Origin: an uncultured Candidatus Marinamargulisbacteria bacterium
GTDB taxonomy: Bacteria > Margulisbacteria > Marinamargulisbacteria > CAYINU01
DNA length: 64,000 nucleotides
Reading direction: 5' to 3'
Assembly: GCA_964364855.1 (NCBI GenBank)
Contig: CAYINU010000002.1
Location: 2,337 to 66,336, forward strand
A model generated the notes under the pieces. It ran no database searches. It had not been told where the DNA came from and saw only the letters and a program-made list of their open reading frames with translations. The translations under genes were made by a program, and so were the position numbers. Below are positions 16,672 through 58,024 of this stretch, in pieces; positions within the stretch are counted from its first letter, which is position 1; each line of letters opens with the position of its first letter.

Positions 16672-18910
16672 GTCGGATCTTAATCAGATCCGGGTGCTAC
16701 TCGGACGAGATCCGTCTGTCGTTGAGTCCTACGTGTTTGATGCCATGTGGAGTGAGCACTGTTCATACAAAAGTAGCAAACGTGTTCTGAAGGCCCACTT
16801 GCCTACCCAAAGCGCCGTAGTGGCATTGGGCATTGGCGAGGATTCTGGCATTTTCCGTTGGACTCACCATGAGGGAAAGTCTTACTGCATCGCCATCTCC
16901 CACGAATCACATAACCACCCATCCCAGATTTTACCCATCGAAGGTGCCGCGACTGGCGTGGGGGGGGTGGTGCGGGATGTGTACTGCATGGGTGCTGATG
17001 TAATCGGCGTACTGAATTCCCTCCACTTTGGGATTCCTGAAGGGCCGGATTCCCACGTTGAGGAAATCGCGACCAATGTGGTCGTGGGGGTATCCGATTA
17101 CGCCAACCCACTGGGGGTTCCGGTATTGGGCGGGGAGACCGTTTTTCACCCCTCTTATAACGACAATTGTTTGGTGAATGTGGCCGCGGTGGGGCTTCTC
17201 ACCGAGGATCGCATCATCCGTAGCCGGGTGCCCGAGCGGGCCGCCCGCGAGCCCTATGACGTGATTTTGGTGGGCAAATCGACCGACGCCACTGGATTTG
17301 GGGGGGCCAGCTTTTCATCGGCCACGCTAGACGAAGAAGATACGTCTGCCAATATGGGCGCGGTTCAGGTCCATGACCCGTTTTTAAAACGGGTCGTGGT
17401 GGAGGCTATTCGGCAATTGCTTAAAGAAGTGGAAACGACGGGTGTCGAAATCGGATTCAAAGACCTGGGTGCCGGGGGTATAGCCTGCGCAACGTCCGAA
17501 ATTGCAGCTGCCGGAGGTTTCGGTGTAACGGTGGATCTGGATGCGGTGAACGTGGCGATCCGGGATCTGCCTTCCGAAGTGATTGCCGTTTCGGAAACAC
17601 AAGAGCGATTCTGCCTGGTGGTGCCCCGTAATTTTAAGGACCGGGTTCTCCAGATTTTCAATGATGACTTTGCGTTGCCTCAGCTGTATCCGCATGCCGG
17701 AGCAGTGGTCATCGGCACCGTCAAAACCGAGCAAACCTTCACCCTGCTGCGAGCCGGACATGTCGTGTGCGATTTGCCTGTAAAAGCGATTACCACCGAG
17801 GTTTCTGCCCATCGGGAATCTATTTCTCGGCCGATCAACCGTACTGCTGCCGATCCCGCGCCGGTACAGTCCGAAGTCGTGGCTCAAGCCTGCCAAGAGA
17901 TCGTAGCCCATCTCAACGGCGAGTCCAAATATTATGTGTATCGTCATTTTGACCAGGCGGTGCGTGGGGAGACGGTGTGCTATCCGGGTGAAGTTGATGC
18001 TGTCGTTACTGCTCCGGTTCGCGGGTTGTTTACGGGGTTGGCGGTGAGTATGGATAGCAACATCTATGGCAATCACGATCCCTATGTGTCCGGTGCTTAT
18101 GCCGTTGCCGAGTCCATTCGCAACGTCGTTGCGGTAGGGGGTGTCCCGCTGGCCCTGACGGATTGTCTGAACTATGGCAATCCGGAAAAGCCCGACGTCT
18201 TTTTCGATTTCGAAGAAGGCGTCAAGGGCATTGCCGATGCAGCGCGAAAATTAAATCCCTTCGGCGAAGAGCCCATTGCCATCATTTCCGGCAATGTTAG
18301 TTTTTACAACGAATCCAAAAAAGGCCGTGCCGTGGTGCCATCGCCTGTGGTGGCATGCTGTGGGCGGGTCGATGATTTTCGCCGTATTCCCGGCATCCCT
18401 CTAAAGGCCGCGGATTCGGTTTTGATTCGGATCGGGGGGTATTATCCTGAGTTTGGTGGAACGGCCCTCTCGGACATCCTTCGGGGCCTCAATACCGTGG
18501 CGCCGCAGGTGCGGTTTGAGCTGGAATGCTTGGCTAATCATGTGGTTTGGAATCTCATCGCCGAACGGATGGTATTGGCTTGCCATGACATTTCGCAAGG
18601 TGGGTTGTGGCTTGCTGTTGTGGAAATGGCGTTAGGGGCCCGCGCGACAGGAACTATCGGAGTGCAGCTACAGTTGCCGGAAGGGGTGCATCCGTTTTCC
18701 TGGCTGTTTTCTGAAAATGGGGGATTTGTGATCGAAGTATCAGCGGACAAAATAGGCGACGTCCGACGGCGCTTGACCACGGCAAACGTTCCTTGGGATG
18801 AAGTCGGTATGACCCAATCCCATCCTACTCTCAACGTGACTCAGCAAGGTAACCTGATCGTGAACTGGCCCCTGGCCGATGTGGCTGTAGTATGGAAACG
18901 ACGGGCATGA
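16658..18910 (+). CDS. purL: phosphoribosylformylglycinamidine synthase subunit PurL
   Basis: ...[14 protein letters not shown]...SHESHNHPS...[12 protein letters not shown]... matches PurL. The protein is 750 aa. Confidence 0.9.
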
Positions 18911-19842
18911 AAACCAAGCTGCTGTTAGCGGTGCTAACCTTTCTCATCCCCTCGGGGATGGTTGCGGCGTCACCGGTGGTCGGTACGGCAGATGTGGCCC
19001 AAAAATTTGAGACCGCACTGCGTTGGGAAAATGCAGGGCTCTGGGTGCCGGCGGGCCGTGCGTACCGCGACGTGCTGCAGCTGATTCCCACAACACCTGA
19101 TGTGCAGGAAACCTCTTTTTATCGACTCTACGGTGCGGTGGCAACCTATCGTCTGGCGATGGTTTCTGTTCAAACCGCGTATACGGGCCTGGCCAAACTG
19201 ACGGATCAAGTCAGTACGTTACAGTCGGTATCGGATCACGTCGATGCGGCCTTGGCTCAGTTAACGGCATTGCCGGCCCTTTCGCCTGCAGAAAAATTGT
19301 GGATGAGTTTGTTGTATAACGCCAGGGCTACGCTGGGCGTGGCCATCACATACCATTTACTCAATGGTGTTGTTTGGAAGCATTATATTATCTATCCCTT
19401 GGACGGCTTGTCCGGAATCCTGGCCACAGCTGCGTCGGACTATCGACGGTCTTTGGCGTATCTCGATCAAAAGCCAGCCAATCCGACGTCTTGGTGGCGA
19501 CGGCTGTTAATCTGGCTCCATATCCGAGACGCCGATACACCTGCCTTTTACCGGTTGGTTGACCAACACATGGCCCAGATTGTTCGCGTCGAAACGCCCG
19601 AGACGGTTAACCTGACTTGCCGGGCTCTAAAAGCCAGCGACGTCAAAAAAGCTGAGCAAAACCTGGTCCGTCTCTATTTGCGGAGCTACCAGGCCCGACA
19701 GGTGATTGGCAATACCCGCATCGTTACCCGCCTTCGGGATGCGGATGAGGCTAACCTCGAAGCGGTGATCGGGAACCGGCGCCTGTTTAAAACGATCGAT
19801 CAACTTGCCCAATCAGCAGGATTGCTTTACGACCTGCGATGA
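18907..19842 (+). CDS. hypothetical secreted alpha-helical protein
   Basis: A signal peptide [21 protein letters not shown] opens the protein. ATG 18907 overlaps the purL stop as ATGA, and the track's alternative start is 18892. No recognisable family was seen. Confidence 0.5.
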   Translation: MKTKLLLAVLTFLIPSGMVAASPVVGTADVAQKFETALRWENAGLWVPAGRAYRDVLQLIPTTPDVQETSFYRLYGAVATYRLAMVSVQTAYTGLAKLTDQVSTLQSVSDHVDAALAQLTALPALSPAEKLWMSLLYNARATLGVAITYHLLNGVVWKHYIIYPLDGLSGILATAASDYRRSLAYLDQKPANPTSWWRRLLIWLHIRDADTPAFYRLVDQHMAQIVRVETPETVNLTCRALKASDVKKAEQNLVRLYLRSYQARQVIGNTRIVTRLRDADEANLEAVIGNRRLFKTIDQLAQSAGLLYDLR

Positions 19843-21926
19843 GCGAGGCGCCCTGCCTGAAATTGCATGATGCTGTTCAATACCTCAAAGGCGTCGGCCC
19901 GCACGGTGCGCAGTTGTTGGACAAGTTGGGCGTGCGGACACTGTGGGAATTGGTGACCTATTTTCCGCGAGAATACGAAGACCGTCGAACCTGGCCGGCA
20001 CTATCTGCGTTAAAGCCGGATACAGTTGGCTATGGTCTGGTGCGCGTGGTGGACGTTTCCCATCGCCAGGCCGGTAACCGCATGGGGATTACGAAGGCAA
20101 CTGTGTCTGATGGCAAATCCACCGTTCGGGCCGTGTGGTTTAATCAAAAATACCTAAAGGCCCAGCTAAAGCCGGGTCAAGACCTTTGGCTGAAGGGCCG
20201 CTTGAATTGGAATGGCCATGAGGATGAATGGCAGTGGATCATTTCGGATACCGAATGGATGTCTGCGGCCAACCGTGAAGTGGCGGTGGGATGCATTGTG
20301 CCCGTGTATGCCCTGACGGCAGGCTTGTCCCAGGTACGGCTCCGGACGTGGATGCGCCAAGCCATCCTGATGGCCGTGCCACAGCGTGTTGAGCCCTACC
20401 CTCACACGATGCTGCAGGAGGCGCACCTCATGGGCCTAGGGCAGGCTATCGTTGACATTCACTTTCCCAAGCAAGCCGATGCCTATCATGCGGCTCGACG
20501 GCGTCTGGTATTTGACGAATTTTTCTATCCCCAGCTGGCCATCGGGCTGCGCCGTTACCATGTGCAGACCACCATGAAAAGTGACCCGTTGATGCTTTCC
20601 GGGGAACTTACCCGACACTATACCGCCCGTCTGCCTTACACCCTGACCCAGGCCCAACAAGCGGTCATCCGAGATGTTTTGGCCGATGTCCAAAAAACAC
20701 AGGCGATGAATCGGCTTGTTCAGGGCGATGTCGGATCGGGAAAAACGGATGTGGCAGCAGTGGCGCTTCTGGCGGCAGTCGAGTCGGGCGGAAAGGGTGC
20801 CGTAATGGCCCCCACCGAGGTGCTGGCCCATCAGCATTTTCTGAAATTCCAAACCTTGCTCTCCCCACTCGGGGTGAAGGTGGTGCTGGTGACCGGCAAG
20901 CAGTCGGTAGGCCAACGCCAAGCGGCACTGAGCGAATTGTCAAAAGAAGACCCTTTGATTGTAGTGGGGACCCATGCCCTCATTCAAGAGGCGCTGGTTA
21001 TCCGGAATTTGCGGTTGGCTGTTGTGGATGAGCAGCATCGCTTTGGTGTCCTTGCGCGCACCGAACTACGTCGGAAAGGGGCCAATCCCCATTGTCTTTT
21101 CATGACGGCCACACCGATTCCACGTAGCCTCATGCTGACGGCCTATGGCGACTTGGACAAATCCATTATTTCGGAAATGCCGCCTGGTCGAGTACCTCCC
21201 ACGACGACGTCGACTGTGCTAGATAACGAAAATGAAATATTCCGCTTGTGCTTGGACCGACTAAGCGAGGGGCGCCAGGTTTACATCGTGTTTCCGCTGA
21301 TCGAGGAGTCCGAAAAGATCGATTTGGCCTCAGCGGTTGCTGCATTTGAACGCTTACAAGCATCGGTGTTTACCGGTTATAAGGTTGGGTTGTTGCACGG
21401 ACGAATGACTACCCGGGAAAAGGCAGAGGTGTTGGATCGCTTCAAATCCAACGCTGCCCAAGTTCTGGTGAGCACCACCGTCATCGAAGTCGGTATCGAT
21501 GTTCCCAATGCAACGGTAATGGTCATCTATCACGCCGAGCGGTTTGGATTGGCGCAGTTGCATCAGCTACGGGGTCGCATCGGACGTGGGGGTGGCCGCA
21601 GTGATTGCGTGTTGGTATGTACCTCCCGTGAAGATGCCAAGGGAGCTCGCATCAAAGCGCTGGTAGAAACGACGGATGGCTTCAAGCTTGCCCAGATCGA
21701 TCTGAAGCTTCGGGGTCCCGGGGCGTTAAATGGGTTGCGGCAAGCCGGTATGCCGGACTACAAATTGGCCAATCTCATCACGGACGAGTTGCTGTTGCTT
21801 TTGGCAAGAGAAATGGCAGGAAAAGTGGTGGCATCGGATCCGACACTGAAACAACCCACCCACAAATGGATCCGATCTGAGCTGGCCCGGTTGAATCAGC
21901 GGCTGGGCTGGGGGAGGTTGAATTAA
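19839..21926 (+). CDS. recG: ATP-dependent DNA helicase RecG
   Basis: A wedge domain is followed by the helicase core ...LVQGDVGSGKTDVAAVA... DEQHRFGV ... and a C-terminal RecG fold. The protein is 695 aa. Confidence 0.9.
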   Translation: MSEAPCLKLHDAVQYLKGVGPHGAQLLDKLGVRTLWELVTYFPREYEDRRTWPALSALKPDTVGYGLVRVVDVSHRQAGNRMGITKATVSDGKSTVRAVWFNQKYLKAQLKPGQDLWLKGRLNWNGHEDEWQWIISDTEWMSAANREVAVGCIVPVYALTAGLSQVRLRTWMRQAILMAVPQRVEPYPHTMLQEAHLMGLGQAIVDIHFPKQADAYHAARRRLVFDEFFYPQLAIGLRRYHVQTTMKSDPLMLSGELTRHYTARLPYTLTQAQQAVIRDVLADVQKTQAMNRLVQGDVGSGKTDVAAVALLAAVESGGKGAVMAPTEVLAHQHFLKFQTLLSPLGVKVVLVTGKQSVGQRQAALSELSKEDPLIVVGTHALIQEALVIRNLRLAVVDEQHRFGVLARTELRRKGANPHCLFMTATPIPRSLMLTAYGDLDKSIISEMPPGRVPPTTTSTVLDNENEIFRLCLDRLSEGRQVYIVFPLIEESEKIDLASAVAAFERLQASVFTGYKVGLLHGRMTTREKAEVLDRFKSNAAQVLVSTTVIEVGIDVPNATVMVIYHAERFGLAQLHQLRGRIGRGGGRSDCVLVCTSREDAKGARIKALVETTDGFKLAQIDLKLRGPGALNGLRQAGMPDYKLANLITDELLLLLAREMAGKVVASDPTLKQPTHKWIRSELARLNQRLGWGRLN

Positions 21927-21952
21927 TGGCAAATTTAGAACGACTTAGACAG

Positions 21953-21981
21953 TTGACTAAATTTACTTAAAAGACTAAATT
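21953..21981 (+). promoter_or_regulatory. sigma70-like promoter TTGACT-17-TAAATT in an AT-rich spacer, overlapping two 11-bp direct repeats gactaaattta (21955-21965, 21973-21983)
   Basis: Read directly, upstream of the orphan ATPase gene. Confidence 0.4.
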
Positions 21982-22026
21982 TAGTTGATAGAATAAATTT
22001 ATGAATTTCTATAATGGGATATAAAT

Positions 22027-23223
22027 ATGCAAATTGAAAATCCTTTCCGGCCCGGCGCCGGCCATCCCCCTCCTTTTTTAGCGGGACGCACTGCGGAACA
22101 AGACGAGATGCGAAAGCTACTGCGGCAAACTGTTATAACAGAGAATCTGGTTTTGACCGGCCTTAGAGGTGTAGGCAAAACGGTTCTGTTAGAAACCTTT
22201 AAGCCTATTGCCTATGAAAACCACTGGCTATGGGCTGGAAATGATTTATCAGAAACGGCTAGTATAACAGAGCAAAATCTAGCTACGCGGATCCTGACCG
22301 ATATTGCTTTGGTCACATCCGCAATCATTACCAGTGAGGTTAAAGTTTCTAAGATGGGTTTTGCTACGCAAGAAGAAACGGTTTCCCATCCTATAAACTA
22401 TGAGGTCTTAAGATATCGTTTTGATAGTACGCCCGGGCTAGTATCCGACAAGTTAAAAGCTACTTTGGAATGGGTATGGCCAATGCTGCCACATGACAAG
22501 TTAAAAGGCATTGTGTTTGCCTACGACGAAGCTCAAAATTTGTCCGACCACGCAGCTAAAGACGAATATCCCTTATCGTTGCTTTTAGAAGTATTTCAAT
22601 CGCTACAAAGAAAAAAAATACCGTATTTACTGATTTTGACAGGGTTGCCCACGCTATTTCCAAAGCTTGTAGAAGCAAGGACCTATGCCGAGCGAATGTT
22701 TCATATTATTTTTCTTAAGCAACTTTCTGATAAAGATTCTGAAGATGCAATTAATATTCCTATTCAGAAAGAAAAATCTCTTCTTACTTTTTCTCAGGAT
22801 GCTGTAAGGATTATAGTCAGCCTGTCTGGGGGCTACCCATATTTTATTCAGTTTATTTGTAAGGAAGTATTTGATATTTGGATTCCAAAATTAGAACAAG
22901 GTGAAATTCCAGGAACCTTTCTCCCTTCTGATGATATCTTAAGAAAATTAGATACGGATTTTTTTCAGGGTCGATGGGCTAAGGCAACAGATAGGCAAAG
23001 AGACCTTTTAACCCTTGTTTCGACGCTTCCTAATTGTGAAGATGAGTTCACGGTTCAGGAAATCGCTTCAGCATCAAAGAACACCCAGAAACCCTTTTCT
23101 AGCAGCCATATTATTCAAATGTTAGCCTCTTTGGCGGATGCGGGTCTCGTTTATAAAAATCGGCATGGAAAGTATGCTTTAGCAGTCCCTTTGTTGTCTC
23201 GCTTTATCCGTCGGTCTGAATAG
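22027..23223 (+). CDS. orphan AAA+ ATPase of the archaeal-type ATPase family (COG1672 / Arch_ATPase-like) with C-terminal winged helix
   Basis: NPFRPGAGHPPPFLAGRTAEQDEM is the family-typical N-terminus. Walker A is GLRGVGKT and Walker B is IVFAYDEAQ. The C-terminal ...GLVYKNRHGKYALAVPLL is a wHTH. The 3' half of the gene is markedly AT-richer than its neighbours. Confidence 0.7.
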   Translation: MQIENPFRPGAGHPPPFLAGRTAEQDEMRKLLRQTVITENLVLTGLRGVGKTVLLETFKPIAYENHWLWAGNDLSETASITEQNLATRILTDIALVTSAIITSEVKVSKMGFATQEETVSHPINYEVLRYRFDSTPGLVSDKLKATLEWVWPMLPHDKLKGIVFAYDEAQNLSDHAAKDEYPLSLLLEVFQSLQRKKIPYLLILTGLPTLFPKLVEARTYAERMFHIIFLKQLSDKDSEDAINIPIQKEKSLLTFSQDAVRIIVSLSGGYPYFIQFICKEVFDIWIPKLEQGEIPGTFLPSDDILRKLDTDFFQGRWAKATDRQRDLLTLVSTLPNCEDEFTVQEIASASKNTQKPFSSSHIIQMLASLADAGLVYKNRHGKYALAVPLLSRFIRRSE

Positions 23224-23232
23224 CTTGAGGCG

Positions 23233-23751
23233 ATGCACATTTTAGGCGGCACATTGAAAGGAAAGTCCCTGACCCGGTCCAAGACCGATGCCGTGCGGGC
23301 TACTCAAAGCCGTGTGCGCGAAGCGGTTTTCAACATTTTGCAAACCCGTGTCTCGGGGTCCCGCTTTCTGGATTTGTTTTCTGGAACAGGGGCCATGGGA
23401 CTTGAGGCATGGTCGCGGGGTGCGGTGAGCGTGACTTGCGTGGACCAGGACGTGAGGCTGGTGCGCCAAAACTGCAAAGACACTCCGGAAATCCGAATTG
23501 TTCAAAAAGAGGTTGTGCGCTTTGTGACGGCTGCTACCGAGCCAGTGGATATTATTTTTGTAGATCCCCCATGGCAGGATCTGCGCGTACTCACCGATAC
23601 GTTGAAGGGCATAGTGGCCTCTGATATACTTTTTGAATCGGGCTTACTCCTGGTGGAGCACTACAAAAAGACACAGTTGCCCACTCTGCCTTTTACCTTT
23701 TTAAAAACCTATCAGTACGGGGACACGGTGTTAACGGTTTGGACGCGATGA
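23233..23751 (+). CDS. rsmD: 16S rRNA (guanine966-N2)-methyltransferase
   Basis: ...FLDLFSGTGAMGLEAWSRGA...IIFVDPPW... is a SAM methyltransferase with the DPPW motif. The rsmD-coaD gene pair is conserved. Confidence 0.85.
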   Translation: MHILGGTLKGKSLTRSKTDAVRATQSRVREAVFNILQTRVSGSRFLDLFSGTGAMGLEAWSRGAVSVTCVDQDVRLVRQNCKDTPEIRIVQKEVVRFVTAATEPVDIIFVDPPWQDLRVLTDTLKGIVASDILFESGLLLVEHYKKTQLPTLPFTFLKTYQYGDTVLTVWTR

Positions 23752-24221
23752 AAAAAGCCATTTATGCCGGCAGTTTCGACCCCATTACTTTGGGCCACGT
23801 CGACATTATCCGGCGTGCGCTGGTGCTGTTTGATGAAGTCCACATTGCCATCTTGCATAACCCCCTTAAGGCTAGCTTGTTTTCTTTGGATGAACGGATC
23901 GATCTGGTGCGGTCCGCAGTGGATGATGGTCGCGTAAAGGTCGAGGGATTTCGTGGCCTATTGGCGGATTTTGCCTCTCAAAAACAGATTTTCACCATCA
24001 TTCGAGGATTACGCGCCGTATCGGATTTTGACTACGAGATCCAAATGGCTCACACCAACCGTTTGCTTCAACCCCAGCTGGATACGGTTTTTTTGATGAC
24101 GGACGTTTCATTTTCTTATCTAAGTTCAAGTTTGGTTAAGCAGGTCGCCAGTTTCGGCGGCAATATATCCCGCTTTGTTCCGCCGGTGGTGGGACAGGCA
24201 TTACAGGAGAAGTACCGATGA
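23748..24221 (+). CDS. coaD: phosphopantetheine adenylyltransferase
   Basis: MKKAIYAGSFDPITLGHVDII... matches CoaD. The start overlaps the rsmD stop as ATGA. Confidence 0.9.
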   Translation: MKKAIYAGSFDPITLGHVDIIRRALVLFDEVHIAILHNPLKASLFSLDERIDLVRSAVDDGRVKVEGFRGLLADFASQKQIFTIIRGLRAVSDFDYEIQMAHTNRLLQPQLDTVFLMTDVSFSYLSSSLVKQVASFGGNISRFVPPVVGQALQEKYR

Positions 24222-24694
24222 ATGAGATCTTTGGAATGGTGGATGCGATCGAGGCCTACATTTTGGGGTGTAAGCGCTTCCCGCTGACAGACAAGATTTT
24301 GATGGATGAACGTCGGCTGCTCGAAATGCTGGACAAGGTCCGATTTGCCCTCAAAAGCGAAGGGCGCATCGTGAGGGAGTCTCTGGAACGGGCTCAAGGA
24401 GGGGCGTCAGCGCCTATCTCTGAATCGGCGCAGATCCTTTCGACGGATACGGTATCGGCTATACCTGAGTCTGAAATTGCCCAGCGTCGGGCTGAGGCTG
24501 AGCAGTATGCCCAGCAGATTTCTGCCGGAGCCGATCAATATGCCGATCAAGTATTGGCCAATATGCTGTTTTTGGTGGCCAAATTGCAAAAAAATCTGCA
24601 GTCGATGGAAAAAAGCATTGAAAGCGGACGCCAGGTTTTGGAAAAAAATAAAGAGACCCATATGCCCACAGGAGATGCCAATCATGCGTATTGA
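24218..24694 (+). CDS. hypothetical coiled-coil protein
   Basis: The ORF is 158 aa with conserved-looking N-terminus MNEIFGMVDAIEAYILGCKRFPLTDKILMDERRLLEMLDKVRFAL and a Gln/Ala-rich helical C-terminus. It overlaps the rph start by 11 nt. Confidence 0.5.
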   Translation: MNEIFGMVDAIEAYILGCKRFPLTDKILMDERRLLEMLDKVRFALKSEGRIVRESLERAQGGASAPISESAQILSTDTVSAIPESEIAQRRAEAEQYAQQISAGADQYADQVLANMLFLVAKLQKNLQSMEKSIESGRQVLEKNKETHMPTGDANHAY

Positions 24695-26584: not shown

Positions 26585-27168
26585 TGGATCCCGTTTCAAC
26601 GTTTTACATTACGGACCGCCACTACAACCTCATCATTCGCCAGGGCATAGCCAACTATCCGCAAGAAAGCGGTGGATTTGTGGGAGGGCGGTCTGGTGTC
26701 ATTTTGGGTGTGCTGCCCGTATTCAATCAGCATTTGTACAACAAAACCGATACCTATGGCTTGGGTCCCGAAGATACGCTCCGTGCCCACCAGTTTTTTG
26801 AAAAACATCGCCTGACCTGTTTTGGAGTATACCACTCCCATCCCAAGGGCTTGCCCGAGCCCTCGTTTCAGGATTTAAAATCCGGCAATAAATTTCATTT
26901 CATTGTCGGCCTACGTGACCTCAAAAACCCGGTTTTGTTTTGCTATGAGGCCCGCGGATTTCAGGCTCAGGCCATACCCTTGGTCGTGATTACCGAAAAA
27001 GACCTACCCCAATACTTACCCGCGCAAGATGTGGCTCGTTACCATCCCAACTTCGAGTCCATTGACCTCTCCCAGAAGATCGAAGACATCAAAAATCAGA
27101 CCATTTTATATCCGAAAAATCCGCCCACAGATCCCCATAACCCGGATGGATTTAGTACGTTTGCCTAA
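26581..27168 (+). CDS. JAB/MPN+ (JAMM) zinc metalloprotease with a C-terminal extension of about 90 aa
   Basis: The complete JAMM motif is present: ...YPQESGGFVGG... (Glu) then GVYHSHPKGLPEPSFQDL, which is H-x-H-x7-S-x2-D. The start overlaps the upstream gene as ATGA. Confidence 0.75.
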   Translation: MMDPVSTFYITDRHYNLIIRQGIANYPQESGGFVGGRSGVILGVLPVFNQHLYNKTDTYGLGPEDTLRAHQFFEKHRLTCFGVYHSHPKGLPEPSFQDLKSGNKFHFIVGLRDLKNPVLFCYEARGFQAQAIPLVVITEKDLPQYLPAQDVARYHPNFESIDLSQKIEDIKNQTILYPKNPPTDPHNPDGFSTFA

Positions 27169-27200
27169 ATGCGTAACTGGCATGTTAAACTAAAAGTCCT

Positions 27201-27509
27201 ATGCCAAAACGCCTAAAGTTAAATATTGACTTAAATATTCCGATTACTGTCCTTTTAGAGGGGGATATGTACGTTGCCTATACGCCTGCATTTGATTTAT
27301 CGAGCTGTGGAGAGACGTTCGAGGAGGCCGAAATTAATTTGCGGGACGCTACTATACTTTTTATTGAAGAATGTATTCGAATGGGAACACTCGAACGGGT
27401 TTTAGAATCTTGTGGGTGGGCAATCCAGAAACGACAAAACAAATGGGTGCCGCCGCAAATCATCAAACATGACCTTATGCAATTGCCTCCACTTGCGCTT
27501 GCTGCCTGA
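27201..27509 (+). CDS. hicB: HicB/UPF0150-family antitoxin
   Basis: ITVLLEGDMYVAYTPAFDLSSCGETFEEAEINLRDATILFIEECI resembles the HicB N-domain (...YVAYVPDLPGC.TQGDTLEEA...A...). Confidence 0.7.
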   Translation: MPKRLKLNIDLNIPITVLLEGDMYVAYTPAFDLSSCGETFEEAEINLRDATILFIEECIRMGTLERVLESCGWAIQKRQNKWVPPQIIKHDLMQLPPLALAA

Positions 27510-33741: not shown

Positions 33742-34278
33742 ATGACAGCTGTTGTGAGAGAAGAGAAGAAAGAAGCTGTTGCAGATCTGAAGGGCCGGCT
33801 TGATGCAGCCGCTTTGACGGTTATTGCAGACTATCGTGGCCTTACTGTGGCCAAGATGCGGCAACTACGCCTATCGCTTCGGGAAACAGGCTGTACCGTA
33901 CAAGTGGCCAAAAACACTTTTACGCAGATTGCCTTAAACCAACTCGGGATTTCCTGCCCGAAGGATCTGTTGGAAGGTCCTTCCATCGTGATTACGACCG
34001 ACACGGATCCTGCAAAAACGGCCAAAGTCATTATTGAATTTGCCAAGGAAAATCAAAACGTTCAGGTTAAAGGGGGTATTTTTGAGCGCCAGGTGGTTCA
34101 GGCTGGCGTGGTGACTGAGTTGGCGAGTTTGCCGTCTCGCGAGGAGTTGATCGCAAGGGCTATCGGCAGCATCAAGTCGCCGCTTTCTCGTTTGGTCTAT
34201 ACGTTATCAGGTCAAATCTCAAGCCTGGTTTATGTATTAAATTCTGTTAAGGAAAAAAAATCTGGAGGTGCACAATGA
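33742..34278 (+). CDS. rplJ: 50S ribosomal protein L10
   Basis: The L10 family pattern is present; the gene precedes rplL. Confidence 0.9.
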
Positions 34279-34694
34279 CAGCAGCTGCGACGGAAGAAAA
34301 GCAAGCAGTTGAATTGACTGGAACTGCAAAGGAAATTATTGGATCAATAGAGAAAATGACGGTATTGGAACTGTCTAATCTCGTGAAGGCCTTAGAAGAT
34401 AAATTTGGTGTTGTCGCTGCCGCCCCTGTGGCTGTAGCCGCTGGTGGTGCTGCCGCTGGTGCTCCTCCTGCCGAGGAAGCCGACGCGAAAATCGATGTTA
34501 TCTTGAAAGACTCTGGCGATAAGAAAATCCAGGTTTTAAAAGTAGTTCGTGAATTGACTGGCCTGGGCCTGAAAGAAGCCAAGGACTTGGTAGACTCCGC
34601 TCCGAAGCCTATTAAAGAAGGCGTAGAGCGCGAAGAAGCTGAGAAGATTAAGAAGGCTTTGGAAGAGCAAGGCGCAAAAGTTGAATTTAAATAA
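34275..34694 (+). CDS. rplL: 50S ribosomal protein L7/L12
   Basis: ...[21 protein letters not shown]... is followed by an Ala-rich hinge and ...[41 protein letters not shown] strong RBS GGAGGTG precedes the ATG. Confidence 0.9.
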
Positions 34695-56629: not shown

Positions 56630-57263
56630 GGCAATTATCTTTTTGGGGCCTCCTGCATGTGGCAAGGGTACGCAATCTGAAATCCTATCCCAGAGGATGG
56701 AGGCACTTCAGATTTCGACGGGCACCTTGTTGCGCAAGGCCATCGCAGAAGGAAGTCCCGCGGGGCTAGAGGCCCAACGGTACGTGGAGCAAGGGCTATT
56801 GGTGCCGGATGCGCCTATCCTAGACATGGTTGCAGATCAGTTAGGTGATAAACGGGCACGAAACGGTGTTGTTTTTGACGGATTTCCACGCACTTTAAAC
56901 CAGGCCCAACAGCTGAGCGATTTGTTGGAAAAAGCCAATATTTTGGTGACAAAAGTGTTTCTCGTTGAGGTGGATTTGCCAGAAGTGATATTTCGCATTG
57001 CTGGCCGGCTAGAATGTCCAAAATGCAAGCGTATCTACCATGCCAAACTATACCCACCCAAAGTTCCGGGGATATGTGATGTCTGTCAGACCCGTCTGGT
57101 TCATCGTTCGGACGATACAGAAGAAAAAGTGAAAAAACGCTATGCCATTTATGAAAAAGAAATCGGACCGATCGTGGCGTATTATGGCGAGACGTTGGTC
57201 CGTATTGACGGGCAGCAAGCCAAAGAGGCGATCGCCAAGCAGATTGCCCAATACTGTTTATGA
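56622..57263 (+). CDS. adk: adenylate kinase (zinc-finger lid type)
   Basis: (GTG) MARAIIFLGPPACGKGTQSE... matches Adk, with lid Cys motifs CPKC...CDVC. GTG 56622 overlaps the secY stop. The track's upstream extension lies inside secY and is rejected. Confidence 0.85.
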   Translation: MARAIIFLGPPACGKGTQSEILSQRMEALQISTGTLLRKAIAEGSPAGLEAQRYVEQGLLVPDAPILDMVADQLGDKRARNGVVFDGFPRTLNQAQQLSDLLEKANILVTKVFLVEVDLPEVIFRIAGRLECPKCKRIYHAKLYPPKVPGICDVCQTRLVHRSDDTEEKVKKRYAIYEKEIGPIVAYYGETLVRIDGQQAKEAIAKQIAQYCL

Positions 57264-58024
57264 TTTCCATCAAAACCGAGTCTGAGTTGTCGATTATGCG
57301 AGAGGCGGGCCGCATTTTGGCGCTGACGTTTGTCGCCGTAGGTCCTCAAGTCCGGGAAGGTATTTCGGCTAAAACGTTGGATGATCTGGTGAAAAATACG
57401 ATTCAGAACCTGGGTGCCGAACCTGGATTTTTGGGCTATCAGGGCTACAAGTATAGCGCTTGCATTTCCAGAAACGAGGAAATCGTGCATGGGATCCCTT
57501 ATGCAGACAAGATTGTACTACCGGGAGATATATGGAGTATTGACATCGGTGTTCGCTTTAACGGATACTATGCCGATGCGGCGCGAACGTACTGCGTCGG
57601 GCCGGTCTCTGATCAGGCGAGAAAATTGGTAGAAGTAACTAAGGCATCGTTTTTTGAGGGTATTCGCCGGGCTGTTCCTGGCAACCGTCTGGGCGACGTT
57701 TCCAACGCCATCCAAACCTATGTGGAATCCCACGGGTTTGCAGTGGTGAAAGACTTGTACAGTCACGGTATTGGAAAGTCGTTACACGAAGATCCACTCA
57801 TTCCCAATTATGGGAAAAAGGGGAAAGGTCCTGTGCTCAAGCGCGGGATGACATTTGCTCTGGAGCCGATGGTGAACATCGGAACGGATCGGATCGTTAC
57901 CCTTGCCGATAAGTGGACGGTTGTGACTGCAGACCGAAAATGGTCGGCACACTATGAAAATACGATTCTGGTTACCGACGAAAATGGTCCCGAAATATTA
58001 ACCTTGGATACAAGTGAACGATGA
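57260..58024 (+). CDS. map: type I methionine aminopeptidase
   Basis: ...HGIP...D.GV..NGYY.D..RT..VG... with conserved metal ligands matches Map. The start overlaps the adk stop as ATGA. Confidence 0.9.

Follow-up and report, generated by a model that had tools for sequence, protein, structure and literature searches.

Introduction

ATP-switched DNA binding or oligomerisation is well known from Orc1/Cdc6, DnaA, MalT, TnsC and MuB, and phage morons, a concept that comes from the lambdoid and other temperate phages, are autonomous transcription units lodged between phage genes. In the COG1672 group of ATPases, the C-terminal companion domain of the typical members, DUF234, has been classified as a PD-(D/E)XK nuclease family (PMC3424549). 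Here we describe a gene that can be set beside each of these systems. It lies in a 64-kb stretch of DNA (the window, meaning the whole stretch that was analysed) from a groundwater metagenome-assembled genome of Candidatus Margulisiibacteriota, where an open reading frame (ORF) at 22027-23223 on the forward (+) strand, with an ATG start, encodes a 398-residue P-loop nucleoside triphosphatase (NTPase) with a C-terminal winged helix, hereafter the ATPase. The best structural neighbours of this protein are 2qen and 2fna, two archaeal ATPase_2 proteins of unknown function.

Taken as a whole, and with modest confidence, the observations are best explained by a horizontally acquired, self-contained module of 1.3 kb that encodes an autorepressed, ATP-dependent DNA-binding protein that may interfere with mobile DNA. 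The separate components of this explanation are not equally firm. That the product is an autoregulated DNA-binding NTPase of the ATPase_2/STAND-ORC-like class we consider likely, and its proposed role is put forward more tentatively below.

Results

The recG-rsmD junction

The module (21927-23232, +) fills the whole interval between the recG stop codon and the rsmD start codon. It comprises a 100-bp promoter/operator spacer, the gene for the ATPase and its winged helix, and the 9 bp that separate its stop codon from the rsmD start and hold the rsmD ribosome-binding site. Both flanking genes, recG (19839-21926, +; NCBIfam RecG equivalog, 808 bits) and rsmD (23233-23751, +; Pfam Cons_hypoth95, 133 bits, and TIGR00095), are host core genes outside the module, and a terminator scan found no terminator between the ATPase gene and rsmD. 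The probable ribosome-binding site of the ATPase gene, GGGA (22016-22019, +), was recognised from the sequence and lies 7 nt before the ATG.

The first-pass annotation of this region had described an AT-richer insertion between recG and rsmD, a description borne out by composition and by empty junctions in relatives. The GC content is 0.414 in the gene and 0.23 in the spacer, as against 0.51 in the window and 0.56 in recG, and falls to 0.34-0.36 in the 3' half of the gene; GC at third codon positions (GC3) is 0.362, the lowest among the 58 ORFs of the window (mean 0.55, standard deviation 0.059; z = -3.19). In the closest available relative (locus L201; RecG 49% identical) recG and rsmD touch, with a gap of 0 bp and no ATPase gene, and the order of genes is that of the window: purL, an ORF of ~320 residues, recG, rsmD, coaD, an ORF of ~155 residues, rph, JAB and, on the other strand, Aldedh. 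The gap is also 0 bp in L203, a named Margulisiibacteriota, and amounts to 41 bp in L093 and 1 bp in L143 and L145, again without the ATPase; in L202 the region is rearranged. These junctions belong to distant relatives, the nearest RecG among 5.8 billion proteins being 49% identical and the best in a metagenome scan 48%.

We therefore hold with high confidence that the module split a recG-rsmD-coaD operon by horizontal insertion. Presence of the gene between recG and rsmD in every relative, together with normal codon usage, had been named at the outset as the outcome that would speak for a core gene; neither was found, and horizontal acquisition accordingly stands, with the GC3 outlier, the empty junctions in five loci and the patchy, phylogenetically scrambled distribution of the family in its support. 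A genomic islet is recognised by such a combination of aberrant composition, an unoccupied site in relatives and patchy occurrence at odds with phylogeny. The recG-ATPase-rsmD arrangement occurs in three independent assemblies, so that it reflects neither a chimeric contig nor an assembly artefact. Within the window, no mobility genes and no att-like or target repeats were found at the borders of the module, and Rfam returned only two tRNAs, neither of them near it, indicating that no RNA element is involved.

An operator-like array upstream of the gene

In the spacer, GACTAAATTTA occurs at 21955 and 21973 and a third copy, GAATAAATTTA, at 21991, at an exact spacing of 18 bp. Two 11-bp direct repeats had been recorded here at first pass; both are present at 21955 and 21973, and the description was incomplete in lacking the third copy and the palindromic operator-like sites. 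We distinguish four such sites, given without strand: O0 (GCAAATTTAG, 21929-21938), with one core mismatch, lying 28 bp upstream of O1 and containing AAATTT at 21931; O1 (CTAAATTTAC, 21957-21966); O2 (CTAAATTTAG, 21975-21984), a perfect palindrome (ACTAAATTTAGT); and O3 (ATAAATTTAT, 21993-22002), downstream of the -10 element, with its core starting 33 nt before the ATG. In 5000 dinucleotide-preserving shuffles of the spacer an 11-nt repeat arose in 16, and three equally spaced 8-mers in 0. No further operator-like site was found elsewhere in the 64-kb window.

The array coincides with a predicted promoter. A promoter scan placed the -35 hexamer TTGACT at 21953-21958 (+), overlapping O1, and the -10 hexamer, which follows after a spacer of 17 bp, is the TAAATT of O2 (21976-21981). 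The promoter TTGACT-17-TAAATT (21953-21981) proposed at first pass is thus present, and as a lone consensus match it is not above chance; it gains weight because its geometry is conserved at other loci. A second pair, TTGATA-19-TATAAT (21985-22015), was judged less likely, having a 19-nt spacer and implying a transcript that starts ~5 nt before the ATG, without a ribosome-binding site. The TATAAT of this pair is also seen in L018, at the same place.

The array was surveyed in the 150 bp upstream of the gene at 78 loci, with the remaining ~800 kb of these loci as background. Exact TAAATTTA occurs upstream of the gene at 60 of the 78 loci, in at least 15 phyla, at a density of 8.1 per kb compared with 0.02 per kb elsewhere in the loci, an enrichment of ~400-fold. 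Pairs of sites (at most one mismatch) are spaced by 18 bp in 68 instances, the runner-up spacing accounting for 9, and a matrix of 130 sites reads c-TAAATTTA-g/t. Measured from the start of TTGAC, a site core follows after 23 nt at 15 loci and after 5 nt at 8 loci, offsets which place the TAAATT of a site 17 bp after the -35, so that it serves as the -10. At 13 loci, the window included, the last full site begins 33 nt ahead of the ATG, which is the most frequent distance, and CTAA half-sites recur 17 and 27 nt beyond it, over the ribosome-binding site and start codon. The 28+18 spacing of the array that begins with O0 recurs in L198 and L199. The putative operators thus lie across the core promoter of the very gene that they accompany, as those of an autoregulated repressor do, and the repeats form a conserved, putative operator array that travels with the ATPase gene.

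Variation within the family is informative as to whether the protein itself would recognise these sites, as their co-conservation and promoter geometry suggest. P0125 and P0127, which are 46-49% identical, retain both the helix motif S-H-x-x-Q-M-L and the site. In P0123, with a diverged recognition helix, the palindrome has become GTTAATTAAC while the 18- and 28-bp spacings are unchanged; P0123 may represent a natural specificity switch, usable for mapping a recognition code. Upstream of this 53%-identical protein, at L198:1200-1363, TAAATTTA is replaced by TGTTAATTAACA, accompanied by GTGTTAATT repeats. P0126 and P0138 likewise have other upstream sequences in place of TAAATTTA. The counter-example is P0128, in which the helix is changed (SDVAQIL) yet ATAAATTTAT is retained; as a predictor of the operator the recognition helix thus held in two of three predictions, with P0128 contradicting it, and the claim was dropped at the level of residues.

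Two other readings of the array were weighed. Palindromic operators over its own promoter, together with a winged helix-turn-helix, would also suit an ordinary transcription factor with its regulon elsewhere, that is, a minimal MalT/LAL-like, ATP-dependent regulator that is often transferred and whose upstream sites are no more than customary autoregulation, and the site search covered only ~13 kb per copy and 64 kb of the host. Within that compass, however, sites away from the region upstream of the gene are no denser than chance, no conserved target gene adjoins the module, the protein has no ligand-sensing domain, and a regulon would need to be re-created in every new host across phyla, all of which makes this reading most improbable. 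Regularly spaced AT-rich repeats adjoining a gene are, on the other hand, also a feature of archaeal origins and iteron plasmids, and could be the iterons of a small origin served by an Orc1/Cdc6-like initiator or element-maintenance protein; the module might, on that reading, represent a remnant or an integrated mini-replicon, or else promote its spread through local over-replication. The sites coincide exactly with the -35 and -10 boxes, as those of a repressor would, and we regard an initiator as very unlikely, for this and for further reasons given below.

The ATPase protein

The sequence motifs noted at first pass are all present in the 398-residue ORF. The N-terminal motif NPFRPGAGHPPPFLAGR (residues 5-21; 22039-22089, +) is nearly invariant in the family alignment, although its confidence in the monomer model is partly low, with a predicted local distance difference test (pLDDT) value of 49 for residues 11-20 and below 50 for residues 11-14. 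In Walker A (GLRGVGKT, residues 45-52; 22159-22182, +) G45, G48, G50 and K51 are invariant and T52 nearly so, and in Walker B (IVFAYDEAQ, residues 162-170; 22510-22536, +) Y166, D167 and E168 are invariant even at 35% identity. The lid domain bears SGGYPYFIQ (residues 267-275; 22825-22851, +), with G269, P271 and Q275 invariant, which we take to be the GxP-type motif found in STAND and ATPase_2 NTPases. Candidate arginine fingers are R218 and R223. Since relatives of as little as 35% identity retain R223, Walker A, Walker B and the GGYPYF lid motif without change, the protein is probably an active ATPase.

An AlphaFold model built with 32 homologs (pLDDT 81; predicted template modelling score, pTM, 0.73) places a winged-helix domain at the C-terminus (residues ~300-398; 22924-23220, +), with the topology H-H-b-H-H-b-b, a putative recognition helix (residues 359-371; 23101-23139, +) and the wing YKNRHGKY. 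Structurally, this domain comes closest to the C-terminus of 2qen and to DNA-binding domains from repressors of the ArsR/SmtB, Fur/Zur, IclR, MarR and Rrf2 types, so that both the topology and the fold matches uphold the winged helix-turn-helix assigned at first pass. In Pfam, the C-terminal 98 residues gave sub-threshold matches only, all of them to winged-helix families, and the C-terminus of one relative matches the HTH_5/MarR models.

At the level of families the assignment is looser. Pfam AAA_16 (PF13191) is matched marginally over residues 18-170 (35.0 bits against a cut-off of 32.6, E 2.7e-8); the precomputed match is graded "weak" for the window protein, while other members range from unmarked to "faint". 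ATPase_2/Arch_ATPase (PF01637) reaches 20.3 bits, below its cut-off of 33.2 (E 5e-4), albeit over residues 23-274 and nearly the whole profile. DUF234 (PF03008) was not matched by the whole protein at E <= 0.01 nor by the C-terminal 98 residues at E <= 10, no STAND model was matched in the Pfam scan, in which AAA_16 alone reached significance, and searches of NCBIfam, PADLOC and PDB sequences gave no meaningful match. The label "COG1672-type" given to the protein at first pass therefore holds for the fold, as seen in 2qen and 2fna, and fails for the family, ATPase_2 being below cut-off and DUF234 absent.

Some of these features could be read as those of a replication initiator: a protein of ~400 residues that combines AAA+ and winged-helix domains resembles Orc1/Cdc6, ORC/Cdc6 structures are the next-best fold class, and the best PDB sequence match, at a marginal E of 0.002, is the C-terminal winged helix of MCM. 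No Cdc6/Orc family model was matched, however, in Pfam or NCBIfam.

Ten longer relatives were inspected and none has a fused effector or sensor domain; P0258, for example, merely adds an N-terminal extension. Another of them, P0186 (862 residues), consists of two ATPase-winged helix units in tandem, a covalent dimer that would fit an oligomeric mode of working.

Distribution of the family

Approximately 8000 database proteins match the ATPase, the best 120 of them full-length and 62-72% identical, and full-length relatives extend down to 29% identity. A library clustered at 50% identity holds 168 matching clusters at E <= 1e-30, a number that rises to 2948 at E <= 1e-3. Relatives are encoded in at least 553 species-representative genomes, of which the best 80, 56-68% identical, include Alpha-, Beta- and Gammaproteobacteria, Desulfobacterota, Myxococcota, Planctomycetota, Verrucomicrobiota, Acidobacteriota, Dehalococcoidia, Nitrospirota, Nitrospinota, Omnitrophota, Fibrobacterota, Lentisphaerota and others, among them cultured Pseudomonas. 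The family as a whole spans more than 15 phyla, with 56-72% identity across phyla. Its members carry the database label "ATP-binding protein", and neither a paper nor a named family describing them was found in the literature, in agreement with the first-pass view of the gene as uncharacterised.

A distance tree, which carries no bootstrap support and is used qualitatively, is star-like, with phyla interleaved, and pairs the window copy with a Rickettsiales copy in a mainly proteobacterial group. The copies of Dehalococcoidia, Verrucomicrobiota and Lentisphaerota do group, and the Dehalococcoidia loci L048 and L054 share neighbours, which implies that at least there the gene was inherited vertically for a while after its arrival.

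No DNA-level match was found among 5,426 complete genomes of E. coli, and in PLSDB (72,556 plasmids) and INPHARED (50,697 phage genomes) the core family is absent, only relatives of 26-31% identity being present. This implies that phage carriage is a minority situation and that most copies are chromosomal, a point that tells against the mobile role proposed below. It also bears on the initiator reading: one distant relative, on plasmid pCI3, directly follows a parA-like gene, in keeping with element maintenance, whereas the copies of the core family sit stably in chromosomes among core genes.

As regards these distant relatives, the Clavibacter plasmid pCI3 (L173:1-2582) has a full-length protein of 30% identity right after the parA-like ATPase gene and a small ORF, with a 28-nt inverted repeat just upstream of its start codon, in a locus that opens the plasmid record. 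Approximately 99 plasmids, mostly of Actinomycetota, bear distant relatives like that of pCI3. A 5.8-kb record named "Bacteriophage sp." (MT837995) is unannotated and unverified.

Genomic contexts and mobility

The low GC of the window copy is typical of the family: the gene is below its flanks in GC at 75 of 77 loci, by a mean of 8.8 points, and in GC3 at 63 of 75, by a mean of 11.4 points. No conserved partner gene accompanies it. In an all-against-all comparison of 389 neighbouring ORFs at the 78 loci, the largest cross-locus cluster had 3 members, and the orientations of these neighbours are random. The 142 immediate neighbours belong to housekeeping families, such as aminoacyl-tRNA synthetase, RecA, MurJ, MetH, AroA, MutS and NadE.

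A minority of copies is found in phages. Gene and operator occur together in 19 viral contigs of IMG/VR, and three loci (L179, L190 and L176) are, by PHROG annotation, real temperate phages in which the position of the module varies. In L179 it lies between a RusA-like region and terminase; in L190 it is inserted into the head operon in opposite orientation, with portal and head protease as its neighbours; and in L176 it stands beside a repressor. L179 is an Acinetobacter prophage whose sequenced relatives have the same packaging genes without the module, and the GC of its copy is 0.34 against 0.42 in the flanks. Between L179 and a second Acinetobacter prophage, L180, DNA identity of 85% is confined to the stretch that begins 92 bp upstream of the ATG and ends 41 bp downstream of the stop codon, which marks out a unit similar to the window module. 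The copies in L179, L190 and L176 therefore behave as morons, with their own promoter, deviant composition, variable position and absence from related phages. This description does not extend to the window copy, which lies outside any prophage. The carrier phages have no site outside the gene's own upstream region, save scattered single copies in the low-GC L190. They also have replication proteins of their own, and this, with the placement of the L190 module inside the head operon, argues further against the initiator reading.

A few loci show possible traces of how the module arrived. Exact-match and gapped searches across the family found no general terminal inverted repeat and no fixed target duplication, but five loci have direct repeats of host sequence, 23-190 nt in length, on either side of the module. 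One of these, L030:5666-7409, is an islet of 1.6 kb in which the ATPase module stands alone between a tRNA-Pro(CGG) gene and a 46-nt duplicate of its 3' end, an att-like pair without an integrase, resembling a decayed or cis-mobilisable integrative element. A tRNA gene as a general integration site was considered and rejected, one being adjacent in only 1 of 60 loci. The other bracketing repeats lie at L049:115-304/1693-1882 (190 nt), L068:4535-4620/6099-6184 (86 nt), L177:7738-7777/9362-9401 (40 nt) and L073:5790-5812/7217-7239 (23 nt). They are locus-specific, 85-96% identical, and without other copies in the DNA examined, and Rfam searches of the five repeat-flanked loci found nothing except the L030 tRNA. 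These four pairs may be target sequence duplicated by Campbell-type integration. The differences among repeats and contexts imply that routes of arrival differ and that the ATPase gene tends to be what remains.

Other features of the window

Two ORFs close to the module, at 18892-19842 (316 residues) and 24218-24694 (158 residues), have no Pfam match and appear as conserved hypothetical members of the operon; both hold their position in the purL-ORF-recG-rsmD-coaD-ORF-rph cluster of L201 and L203, and the 158-residue one also in L093. A second low-GC patch (0.40-0.42) is found at 27000-27450, between a JAB-domain gene and an aldehyde dehydrogenase gene on the opposite strand, and inside it the public assembly calls an ORF of 80 residues without Pfam matches (L001 6719-6961). 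Low GC3 is also seen in the ORFs at 56815-57315 (-) and 34275-34694 (+), at 0.37 and 0.41 (z = -3.0 and -2.4).

Discussion

Proposed working and role

The features described above can be accommodated in a simple scheme. The winged helix would bind three to four cTAAATTTAg palindromes, 18 bp apart, over the gene's own -35, -10 and transcription start, and this binding would repress its promoter; ATP binding and hydrolysis would toggle the protein between a monomer and a DNA-bound oligomer. The module would move between distant bacteria partly as a moron of temperate phages and partly with small integrative elements, and would often be the sole foreign gene kept at a site. As to what it does there, our guess is that it interferes with other mobile DNA, through prophage-borne exclusion or defence, by way of DNA binding rather than an enzymatic effector. 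A role of this kind, in conflict between mobile elements or in defence, is offered tentatively; it is the best guess because of phage carriage and of the class of fold to which the protein belongs.

A rival to this scheme, in line with the first-pass suggestion of a stand-alone defence or sensor ATPase, is a dedicated single-gene anti-phage defence or abortive infection system, which has some circumstantial appeal. The NTPase would sense a phage component, oligomerise and block infection, and tight autorepression would hold a harmful protein low. Temperate phages carry the module as a moron that their close relatives lack, its distribution is patchy and shaped by horizontal transfer, and distant relatives are located in integrative or conjugative elements beside toxin-antitoxin genes (L196, L199 and L174). 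We nevertheless consider such a system rather unlikely, in view of several observations that weigh against it and, to varying degrees, against the broader scheme as well. An effector or sensor domain is absent from the protein and from the ten longer relatives. PADLOC matches are of P-loop level only (E >= 2e-4), the best being PDC-S01 at E 2.4e-4 and 18 bits over residues 40-103, the P-loop region. Among the 142 housekeeping neighbours, searches with Pfam and PADLOC found no excess of integrases, transposases or defence genes, and the PADLOC matches are sporadic (LeoA in 2, and single type I S subunit, PrimPol and PDC models). Identities of 56-72% across phyla, with a star-like tree, indicate conservation far above that of typical defence sensors, which as participants in an arms race usually diversify. 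Lastly, in STAND proteins the winged helix that follows the lid belongs to the nucleotide-binding module and does not have to contact DNA.

The housekeeping grade of this conservation suggests that the partner of the protein is itself highly conserved. A further proposal, which we rate as improbable, would take this into account by viewing the module as a novel type of minimal selfish or protective element, in which ATP-dependent assembly on the 18-bp-periodic array that it carries is itself the function. Such assembly might form a roadblock or silencing filament on incoming DNA with similar AT-rich sites. Another possibility is that it brings in a conserved host machine, the replicative helicase or RNA polymerase for example, and recruitment of that kind would explain the conservation. 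The initiator and the plain regulator discussed in connection with the array are less likely. If assembly on the array is indeed the function, the family would represent a pan-bacterial one-protein system without an enzymatic effector, the "last gene standing" after its vehicles decay. The module is also a candidate for a phage-borne exclusion function that needs no enzymatic effector.

Irrespective of role, the module offers a clean case of a gene and its cis-elements transferred jointly across phyla, and a natural minimal model in which a STAND/ORC-like nucleotide switch is coupled to putative sequence-specific DNA binding. Because it is self-contained within 1.3 kb and occurs in cultured Pseudomonas and Acinetobacter, its function is directly testable there. 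For annotation, a defined family, recognisable by its operator signature, could take the place of the label "ATP-binding protein". The conservation, breadth and co-travelling operator would surprise a specialist, though a new mechanism is not thereby established.

Comparison with known systems

The archaeal ATPase_2/COG1672 proteins PABY2304 of Pyrococcus abyssi (2qen) and SSO1545 of Sulfolobus solfataricus (2fna) have the same fold as the window protein, but share only 15-18% sequence identity with it, and ATPase_2 is scored below cut-off. The window protein further differs from COG1672 members in ending with a winged helix, without DUF234, and from the archaeal proteins in belonging to a family that is bacterial and phage-borne, highly conserved, and provided with a conserved operator array. 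In relation to Orc1/Cdc6 (2qby, 2v1u, 1fnn and 1w5s; eukaryotic ORC/Cdc6), there is no family match, for example to Cdc6_C or TIGR02928, and none in a PDB profile search; the lid has a GxP-type motif (GGYPYF) in place of the expected sensor-2 arginine motif, the sites lie over a promoter, and no link to replication was found. Compared with STAND proteins (MalT/LAL, Avs, bacterial NLR-like proteins, CED-4/Apaf-1 and plant NLRs), it is a bare nucleotide-binding module of 398 residues, lacking sensor repeats and effector, so that the NTPase portion of the STAND plan is present and nothing lies beyond the winged helix; its family is also far more conserved than immune STANDs.

Likeness to phage morons is found in the own promoter, deviant GC, variable phage position and absence from close relatives of the phage. 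Unlike morons, most copies (78 genome loci) lie between housekeeping genes and not in prophages, and the family has a conserved operator array and is spread across phyla rather than confined to one phage group. The AAA+ adaptors of transposons, TnsC, TniB and MuB, differ in that the module has no transposase or TniQ-like partner nearby, no terminal inverted repeats and no target duplication of fixed length, and the defence systems of PADLOC-DB 2.0 gave no significant full-length match, nor does the module lie in a defence island. By its defining sequence features, then, the family is outside Pfam ATPase_2, COG1672 with DUF234, Orc1/Cdc6, the STAND families and the PADLOC systems. What sets it apart from all of these, and is new here, is a bare nucleotide-switch-plus-winged-helix protein that crosses phyla as a 1.3-kb unit together with its own operators.

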